This document shows, one piece after another, positions 53,261 through 54,991 of a stretch of DNA of 64,000 nt; within the stretch, counting starts at the first letter, position 1, and the number at the start of each line of letters is the position of its first letter. Location of the stretch: the IMG/VR virus record IMGVR_UViG_2703719088_000001, positions 21,011 through 85,010 of that record. One strand, 5' to 3'. This DNA comes from a virus (lineage: Duplodnaviria; Caudoviricetes). The position numbers and the translations under genes are program-made. The notes beneath the pieces were generated by a model. It worked only from the letters and a program-made list of their open reading frames with translations, did no database searches and was not told the origin of the DNA.

Positions 53261-53475
53261 TTTCTAAAATAATGATGGTTTTTTTGAATTACATCATCCT
53301 TATTCCATTTTCTCAGAAATAATTTTGAATATCAGGAACTATGCCTTTCTTTAACTTCCTCTCTATCTCCCTGCGTTTCAACCTTGTCAAGTGAGGCCAC
53401 AAGTCTGATATCAGAACCTCATCTCCGTTTCCGTCTGTCTTGAATGGACGTTGGAGATATTCTTCAAGTGTCATT

Positions 53476-53519
53476 ATTTTTCTTTTCATAGTTTCTTATT
53501 TTTCTTTTCATAGTTTCTT
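53476..53519. repeat. 22-bp tandem duplication containing a start codon
   Basis: ATTTTTCTTTTCATAGTTTCTT x2. Confidence 0.85.
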
Positions 53520-53644
53520 TATGAAACCAAAGCAGCAGGGCAGCGGGAATACGGAACGACCAAGGAGACCACATTATCCGCAATGGCATAGGATAGTGGG
53601 ACGCTCCGACTAACTGCTGTCCTGGCTTGCTGCTATGGTTATGT

Positions 53645-54048
53645 ATGTGCGCATAGAACTACCACAATAGCTTTCGCTACCAAACATTTCTTTGAACGCA
53701 ACGGATTGCAACTCTCAATTCATCACATTTGTTTGTGGTCTGGACTCTTCTTAACCATGTTGAAATCTGCGCAGAATGGGCGTTCTTTTCTTTTTGAACT
53801 ATCCGTTTTCATAACGAGGGAACGCTGTTTCCCAATTTCAACGTTAGTTCCTCCTGTATGGTTTCCGCCTGTATAACTCATCAGTCTCACAACGTCAAGC
53901 TGGGGATCAATCCAGCTCCGGGCTTAATGGTTACAAGGCTCGGTATTGACATATTAAACCAGTATTATGCTGGGCAGTAGTTCTCGTGCAAACTATTGTC
54001 CTTCTGTGTTTAACTTAGCCCTTACCGAATGGGGGAGGATGCGCACAT
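53645..54048 (-). ncRNA. putative large structured ncRNA (about 405 nt, possibly extending to about 53525)
   Basis: closing 10-bp helix, several long-range helices and hairpins, no credible ORF; strand inferred from the operon and a GAAA tetraloop. Confidence 0.6.
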
Positions 54049-54053
54049 TAATT

Positions 54054-54305
54054 CTAACATGCTTCAAGTTTCATGTTATTATCAACCTTCCTCAACTCTT
54101 CGGCCTTCTTCAGATACCATGCCTCTTTAGCCAAATCTTGCTCAATAGGATTGCCTTCTTTCAATCCCATGCGCATTCTGTACTTGAGGGCTGTCATTTC
54201 ACACCACAGAGCGGTTTTTTCGTCACCGTATATTCTTCTGATCATTTCGATGACCTCTATGGAGTACAATTTGTAATGTTCTGGATGATTAACTTGTTCT
54301 GACAT
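54054..54305 (-). CDS. DUF3310 domain protein
   Basis: VNHPEHY...IEVIE...KY..R.G.K...QDLAKEAWYL. Confidence 0.8.
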   Translation of the reverse strand: MSEQVNHPEHYKLYSIEVIEMIRRIYGDEKTALWCEMTALKYRMRMGLKEGNPIEQDLAKEAWYLKKAEELRKVDNNMKLEAC

Positions 54306-54330
54306 ATAATTTATTGATTGATGTTTTTTG

Positions 54331-54402
54331 TCGCGAGGGGTGGATTCGAACCACCATCTACGGCCTGCATTACCGCCGATCTACCCTTTAATCCACCTCA
54401 CT
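54331..54402 (-). tRNA. degenerate tRNA-like gene, anticodon TGC (Ala)
   Basis: full cloverleaf, T-arm GGTGG-TTCGAAT-CCACC, D-loop with GG; non-canonical A1.G72, U3.G70 and A33; no encoded CCA. Confidence 0.65.
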
Positions 54403-54466
54403 CCCAAACAGAGTCACGCGCTTCCAACGCTGCTGCGGTTTCCAGCCGTTGATTACTCTGCATGTT

Positions 54467-54991
54467 TTATTCCCTAAACAAATCCTGCTCAATACCTATC
54501 CTGCGAGCCTCATGTAGCGGGACGTAGAATCCGTCTATCCCTGAGTTGAGAAGAGCCTCGGCATTACCTTCTCCAATGGATAGCATCACGCTTCCGCATC
54601 CTGGGCTTCCTCCCTGCTTCCCATATGGTGTGTAGAACCTTATCCTATGCCGCAGGAACAGTATCGCCGTTGACGCAGGAAGAAGTATATCCTGGAACAT
54701 ACGATTGTCCACACGGGCAAAAAGAAGCAGTATGCCGTTATTGTTGTTTACCCATTTCTGGCAAAAATGGGTAAGCAGAGGCTGAGAATACGGAGGGTTG
54801 CACCAGACTCTCACCCCCCCCCAGTTTTGTAAAAGCCCGTTAGTCAGCATGTTATACTCCTTATCGGCAAGATGCCACAGTGGTTTAACCGGAGCACAAG
54901 GGTCAAGATCGAAGTGTCCAAGTTTGTCAACCACCTCTTTTGGCGTGTACCATTCATCGCTTGCCACAGTCTTTTGGAATGATGTGTTCAT
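54467..54991 (-). CDS. phage DNA N6-adenine methyltransferase (Dam-like)
   Basis: SDEWYTP, FDLDPCA, VWCNPPYS. Confidence 0.85.
   Translation of the reverse strand: MNTSFQKTVASDEWYTPKEVVDKLGHFDLDPCAPVKPLWHLADKEYNMLTNGLLQNWGGVRVWCNPPYSQPLLTHFCQKWVNNNNGILLLFARVDNRMFQDILLPASTAILFLRHRIRFYTPYGKQGGSPGCGSVMLSIGEGNAEALLNSGIDGFYVPLHEARRIGIEQDLFRE

Follow-up and report, generated by a model that had tools for sequence, protein, structure and literature searches.

What is the 564-nt non-coding gap that interrupts the dense minus-strand gene array of this phage between a DUF3310 gene and a 58-aa ORF? The gap (positions 53490-54053) lies in an 85-kb provirus record of IMG/VR from an animal-gut metagenome, of which bases 21011-85010 were analysed as one stretch of 64,000 nucleotides (hereafter the window, to which all coordinates refer unless a locus is named). 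An initial annotation, made from the letters alone, had proposed that about 520 nt of this region encode a large pseudoknotted RNA next to a tRNA gene, belonging to a class such as GOLLD or ROOL or to a new one. The statement that the region holds no credible ORF was borne out, as each of the six frames of 53490-54053 is interrupted several times, by stop codons of two or more kinds. Recoding one stop would therefore open no frame, and an alternative genetic code for the gap was ruled out. The neighbouring tRNA gene is also real, and it is the sole tRNA gene that aragorn, with the intron option included, finds in the 85-kb record. The genes around the gap are as follows.

54330-54402, minus strand: tRNA-Ala(tgc), found by aragorn and scored at 43.8 bits by Rfam.
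54054-54305, minus strand: DUF3310 gene (Pfam PF11753, E 1.7e-13), with its stop codon at 54056-54054.
53313-53489, minus strand: 58-aa ORF downstream of the element, without known relatives.

The region folds better than shuffled sequences, with minimum-free-energy z-scores of -3.3 (minus strand) and -2.6 (plus strand), and all of the inverted repeats listed in the initial annotation are present where it had placed them. We searched for the region in several ways. The Rfam search that had been proposed as a check for GOLLD, ROOL and other classes was run on the whole window, on 1.3 kb around the region (E<=10) and on 421 nt, and it returned nothing except the tRNA, with no match to GOLLD, ROOL or Intron_gpI. 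Blastn of the region against the phage collection gave no match, the flanking 58-aa and DUF3310 proteins were found nowhere beyond the source contig, and a 261-aa ORF had no relative in IMG/VR. Searches of IMG/VR and JGI metagenomes based on DUF3310 revealed no relative of the intergenic region, and the nearest DUF3310 genes there (69% and 81% amino-acid identity) have no comparable gap. The neighbouring Dam methylase gene has its nearest relatives in Bacteroides, Phocaeicola, Muribaculum and other Bacteroidales (47-58% identity), which makes a member of the Bacteroidales the likely host of the phage. The Dam-based loci of 40 Bacteroidales genomes contained neither an intron nor a copy of the region, suggesting that the segment with tRNA-Ala, DUF3310 and the element is particular to this phage group.

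The comparison that gave the element its identity started from contigs of four other gut-metagenome runs. One unrelated 2.6-kb gut contig had just two short cores in common with the locus, at a different spacing. A 20-mer from one of these cores (53729-53748) matched six IMG/VR contigs, and an 18-mer from the block that we now assign to P7'-P9.0 (AGTCCAGACCACAAACAA) matched 115 IMG/VR stretches; the stretches found in these two ways have five to six conserved blocks in common, which follow one another as they do in the window. Each of the six contigs has its element in a tRNA anticodon loop, and aragorn rebuilds the tRNA once the insert is removed. These inserts are 442-722 nt long, their hosts are Ser-tga, Gln-ttg, Leu-taa, Arg-acg and Arg-tct, and the genes stand in tRNA arrays of large phages. 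Among all motif copies, 74 of 118 lie in intron-bearing tRNA genes of 15 anticodon types (aragorn, insert removed), and others split protein genes with P-loop exons of DnaB-like helicases. Suppressor-like tca and tta tRNAs are found among the 15 types.

Group I introns of the tRNA anticodon loop are usually called IC3. The compact members of the family found here measure only 187-240 nt and read like the classical cyanobacterial tRNA-Leu intron. A group I structure with P1-P9, the P3/P7 pseudoknot and the tRNA stems was tested on 18 of them. Paired cells amounted to 93.6%, compared with 72% in shuffles, none of 500 shuffles equalled the observed value, 50 pairs were changed on both sides, and sliding the partners lowered pairing to 33-45%. 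Covariation in the family was seen at six of six pairs of P3 and at three of six pairs of P4. The Rfam model Intron_gpI (RF00028) detects two of the homologs, L075 (41.5 bits) and L073 (31.1 bits), both matched over the whole model and both below the gathering score of 50 bits; routine annotation would thus miss them. In all, the 18-mer marks more than 100 group I introns in phage contigs (loci L072-L186). The invasion of tRNAs by group I introns has been noted before (PMC8172020), and 21 tRNA insertion classes have been listed (Williams 2020, bioRxiv 10.1101/2020.01.27.920355). Our results indicate that this type abounds in large uncultured phages, where it occupies tRNA genes and also some protein genes.

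A family HMM of 591 nodes was built from 21 long-type tRNA-hosted introns. It matched the window over 54038-53660 with nodes 89-537 (96 bits, E 1.7e-29), and this was its only match in the 85-kb record. The initial annotation was therefore wrong in seeing no group I signature. In nhmmer comparisons with single loci, the alignments ran from 54045 or 54040 to 53659, and the nearest relatives of the window copy lie within tRNA-Leu(taa), Arg and Ser genes of phages. The RNA, like all neighbouring genes, is read from the minus strand of the window. In addition, a covariance model of the 3' half (R2), built, like its 5' counterpart, from compact introns, scored 45 bits on 53657-53779 (E 3e-8; 42.3 bits with filters off), compared with 50-77 bits for 20 copies in loci outside model building. 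The elements of the window copy are listed below in the order of the RNA.

53659-54038, minus strand: core derived from a group I intron, extending from P3 as far as the terminal G and matched by the family HMM down to 53660.
54038-34/53854-50, minus strand: P3, pairing intact, with P3' reading GGAGG (53850-53854).
Within 54024-54038, minus strand: J3/4, reading CCCA, where long-type relatives have CTAA or CAAA.
54029-24/53944-39, minus strand: P4, pairing intact.
54020-18/53950-48, minus strand: P5, formed.
53951-54017, minus strand: P5 loop and lineage-specific insert, the insert being unaligned in the family alignment and containing AGAACTAC and ACAATAG.
53873-53934, minus strand: P6a (53934-30/53877-73) and its extension.
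53860-53868, minus strand: degenerate J6/7 and 5' strand of P7 (R element), reading GCGGAAACC.
53753-53849, minus strand: P8, with an outer helix 53849-47/53755-53, a main helix 53842-35/53766-59 and a distal hairpin 53833-29/53822-18.
53737-53752, minus strand: J8/7 and P7' (S element), AAGA-AGAGUCC, one base absent, then AGACC.
53661-53739, minus strand: P9 three-way junction, with P9.0 53739-33/53667-61, P9a 53731-27/53685-81 and P9b, a GAAA hairpin, 53679-68.
53659, minus strand: candidate terminal G (omega-G), aligned with the family consensus end ...CUAUAGUGGUA[AC]G.

The core helices P3, P4, P5, P6, P8 and P9 are thus formed in the window in canonical order, and the P8 block is conserved in all relatives. 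The segment 54038-53659 is homologous to tRNA-type group I introns from P3 to the terminal G. This homology gives several of the helices noted at first another identity: they are real, as parts of a group I fold. The pair GTTGAAAT/ATTTCAAC (53759-53766/53835-53842) is P8, GGGAA/TTCCC makes up the tip of the P8 extension, the hairpin TAGC-GAAA-GCTA corresponds to P9b, and what had been called a three-way junction at 53894-53950 falls within the P6 extension. The direct repeat ATACAGG x2 spans the degenerate J6/7-P7 strand and J7/3-P3'. The proposed pseudoknot of AGAACTAC/GTAGTTCT with ACAATAG/CTATTGT found no support among homologs; these pairings join the lineage-specific P5 insert to bases that form P9.0 and P9b in the family; the real pseudoknot is P3/P7. 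Accordingly, the idea of a large, pseudoknotted, structured RNA linked to tRNA genes stood, while the class proposed for it did not, and the element is a group I intron derivative.

The block order of the window (P3, P4, the R and S elements, P8, P9) is the same as in the tRNA IC3 introns of cyanobacterial and plastid tRNA-Leu(UAA) and of Azoarcus tRNA-Ile, and P4 (UUCGG/CCGAG), the GAAA hairpin of P9 and the terminal G are common to both. Unlike these introns, the window copy has no tRNA exons and no recognisable P1 or P2, its P7 is damaged and its J6/7 and J8/7 are shorter, whereas inserts in P5, P6, P8 and P9 enlarge it to 380 nt. Two of its close homologs match Intron_gpI below 50 bits, while the window has no match at E<=10.

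Is this copy still an intron? First, the helix that binds guanosine is altered. At the R element, G[TC]AGAG[AG]C[TG] is found in 86 of 99 distinct family copies, and the window reads GCGGAAACC instead. Two of the five P7 pairs are mismatched (A.C at 53863/53743 and C.A at 53860/53746) with P7' (AGUCC) unchanged, three bases are absent just upstream of the R element in J6/7, and J8/7 is one base short, a gap visible in the covariance-model alignment. Overall, the window deviates at 21 of 95 family-conserved columns, defined by a conservation of 93% or more across 58 tRNA-hosted members; the members themselves deviate at 1.7 columns on average and at no more than 9. Second, the host gene is missing. 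Neither tRNA exons nor a split tRNA were found in the window or the 85-kb genome by aragorn with the intron option, and the 3' flank contains no T-arm. When joined, the flanks give only the hairpin AUGUGCGCAU-UUCU-AUGCGCACAU and no functional gene. Third, HMM nodes 1-88, which cover the 5' exon, P1, P2 and J2/3, have no match in the window, and no convincing P1 or P2 was recognised there. The unmatched nodes alone are no proof that P1 was lost, because bona fide introns hosted by protein genes, which carry P1 just upstream of the HMM match and have no P2, are likewise matched only from about node 90-99, that is, from about P3. The covariance model of the 5' half recovered only a P4-P5 fragment (3.9 bits, filters off); it scored 12 independent members above 30 bits, and three bona fide members with large inserts were missed as well. 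No split or trans-spliced partner and no second intron piece were found in the 85-kb record, and no homing endonuclease was identified near the element by Pfam or PHROGs. A NUMOD-like appearance of the C terminus of a 105-aa ORF received no support from either database and was discarded.

We consider it probable that the minus-strand segment 54038-53659 is what remains of a tRNA anticodon-loop group I intron, a fossil that no longer splices. The loss of splicing is most likely, judging from the missing host tRNA, the missing or unrecognisable P1-P2 part and the changed P7, J6/7 and J8/7. Under this scenario, a group I intron would once have been hosted by a tRNA or by a hairpin resembling an anticodon-arm stem. 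The host tRNA would then have been lost, the 5' part carrying P1 and P2 would have gone missing or become unrecognisable, and P7, the guanosine-binding helix, would have been altered together with J6/7 and J8/7 at positions that are invariant in the family. What is left is probably co-transcribed with the minus-strand genes as an inert, well-folded RNA.

A first alternative is that the intron is still active, with non-tRNA exons and a cryptic P1, and that its removal leaves the transcript running from DUF3310 into the downstream region with either a hairpin or a fused frame. Most core helices are intact, a G stands at the aligned 3' end, the segment preceding P3 ends in U as 5' exons do, and the protein-gene members described above show that an intron with P1 but without P2 can be matched by the HMM only from about P3. 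The frame right after G53659 is open for 64 codons, and without a 22-nt duplication at 53474-53517 it would enter the 58-aa ORF in frame. However, no P1 candidate beats shuffled sequences. The best P1-like pairing, 54176-69 with 54046-39 (8 bp with a 122-nt loop), was matched by 71 of 300 shuffles and lies within the conserved DUF3310 domain; homologs have this domain in one piece, and splicing there would cut it. The open frame overlaps a hairpin with 19-bp arms, is rich in tryptophan and has no homologs, and the spliced product would be no recognisable gene. With the two mismatches in P7, and with the R element and J8/7 departing from invariant family positions, we regard an active intron as improbable. 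The upstream partner in this pairing is the palindrome ATGCGCAT (54169-54176) in the DUF3310 coding sequence; its 8-bp pairing ends in a U.G pair and would compete with the 3' arm of the helix described next.

The homologous segment is bracketed exactly by a perfect 10-bp helix (54048-39/53654-45), which the initial annotation had already recognised as a closing helix.

54039-54048, minus strand: 5' arm, AUGUGCGCAU, which abuts P3 and ends in U; the DUF3310 stop codon lies 5 nt upstream of it.
53645-53654, minus strand: 3' arm, AUGCGCACAU, 4 nt (UUCU) after the terminal G.

This helix is not a product of chance: only 48 of 200000 pairs of random 23-mers from the window contained an equal complement (2.4e-4), and the arm motif occurs only here in the window. 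No other copy among the ~100 family members has a long inverted repeat bracketing the core from P3 to G, and the longest flank complement in the other copies, 9 bp, belongs to an intact tRNA. The helix may be the stub of an anticodon-arm-like hairpin that once hosted the intron. Decay alone does not predict such a helix, and it counts against the reading as a fossil. Of all the features of the element, this 10-bp clamp alone might conceal something of greater interest.

This brings up a second alternative, in which a group I derivative without P1, its core clamped by the 10-bp helix, has been exapted as an element that processes or stabilises RNA, a proposal that we find quite improbable. Such a module might act by hydrolysis at the terminal G, separating the upstream and downstream messages, or by branching of the lariat-capping kind. 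GIR1, the lariat-capping ribozyme, descends from a group I intron, has no P1 and has 5' and 3' ends that pair. The window copy resembles it in being group I-derived, in having no recognisable P1 and in its pairing ends, a likeness in architecture; its guanosine pocket is damaged. In favour of exaptation, the clamp is non-random and stands exactly at the ends of the homology, GIR1 offers a precedent, and the shortened 5' junction is common to relatives from other studies. Against it, the helix that would bind the terminal G is the damaged P7, the architecture occurs in no other copy among the ~100 members, and, as described below, the element is no better conserved than its neighbours.

Contigs from three other gut-metagenome studies proved to come from true relatives of this phage; they cover only 53408-53775 and 54025-54700 of the locus, at ~90% identity. 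A relative from another study has the same 5' junction without the 5' part (54025-54058, 3 mismatches). Just beyond the aligned parts, in P4-P5 and P8, the same relative carries the family consensus, and the window is derived there. Sequence comparison suggests that this difference could reflect faster decay in the window lineage, gene conversion in the other lineage, or constraint there. Across the relatives, the element is no better conserved than the neighbouring genes. There is only a slim chance that the core has been kept rather than merely left, either as a minimal "hairpin-exon" cassette or as a processing ribozyme that would cut or cap at G53659, between the DUF3310 gene and the genes downstream.

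The assignment to GOLLD, ROOL, another large ncRNA class or a new class can be dismissed as extremely improbable: the RNA is long, folds better than shuffles and lies in a phage near a tRNA gene, and GOLLD and ROOL are likewise large structured phage RNAs often near tRNA genes, but no sequence or structure match links them to the window, no Rfam family is reached at the gathering threshold or at E<=10, and the sequence is explained block by block by group I intron homology.

The element belongs, in degenerate form, to a well-known kind, the tRNA-type group I intron, and is not a new RNA class, and with this finding a candidate for a new large phage RNA is removed. Decayed or divergent group I introns have good folds, tetraloops and pseudoknot-like repeats and are missed by the Rfam group I model; such introns can therefore pass for new RNA classes. 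Under the preferred reading as a decayed intron, the relic would record that at some time an intron-bearing tRNA or tRNA stub was present in this temperate phage of Bacteroidales type or in a recombination partner, and the orphan core would represent a late stage in a series that begins with an intact tRNA intron.

Several further observations were made at the locus and in its relatives. The extra irregular hairpin that had been noted near 53525-53635 is present on the minus strand at 53525-53640 (116 nt), in the 3' flank between the element and the 58-aa ORF and outside the intron homology. Its 19-nt arms are 84% complementary, its fold z-score is -2.4, nothing in IMG/VR matched it, and it is covered by contigs of close relatives from other gut metagenomes. 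Its slight resemblance to the 3' half of a tRNA-Leu was too weak to use. The 22-nt tandem duplication at 53474-53517 is perfect and spans the start codon of the 58-aa ORF together with its ribosome-binding region; the relatives' contigs show deletions at these positions, so the duplication seems specific to this genome. In L075, the P5 loop of the tRNA-Arg(acg) intron contains a tRNA-like insert (L075:1400-1503; Rfam tRNA, 30.8 bits) with the T-arm GGTTCGAATCC, and ~600 nt upstream of this intron-bearing tRNA-Arg a segment matches the RAGATH-1 hammerhead ribozyme below threshold (L075:693-758; 50.3 bits, compared with a gathering score of 56.3). The phage contig L073 measures 217 kb, carries at least 12 tRNA genes and also encodes a tmRNA (L073:5687-6059; Rfam, 106.7 bits) with the tag peptide DAYAYSFAA beside its intron-bearing tRNA-Leu.
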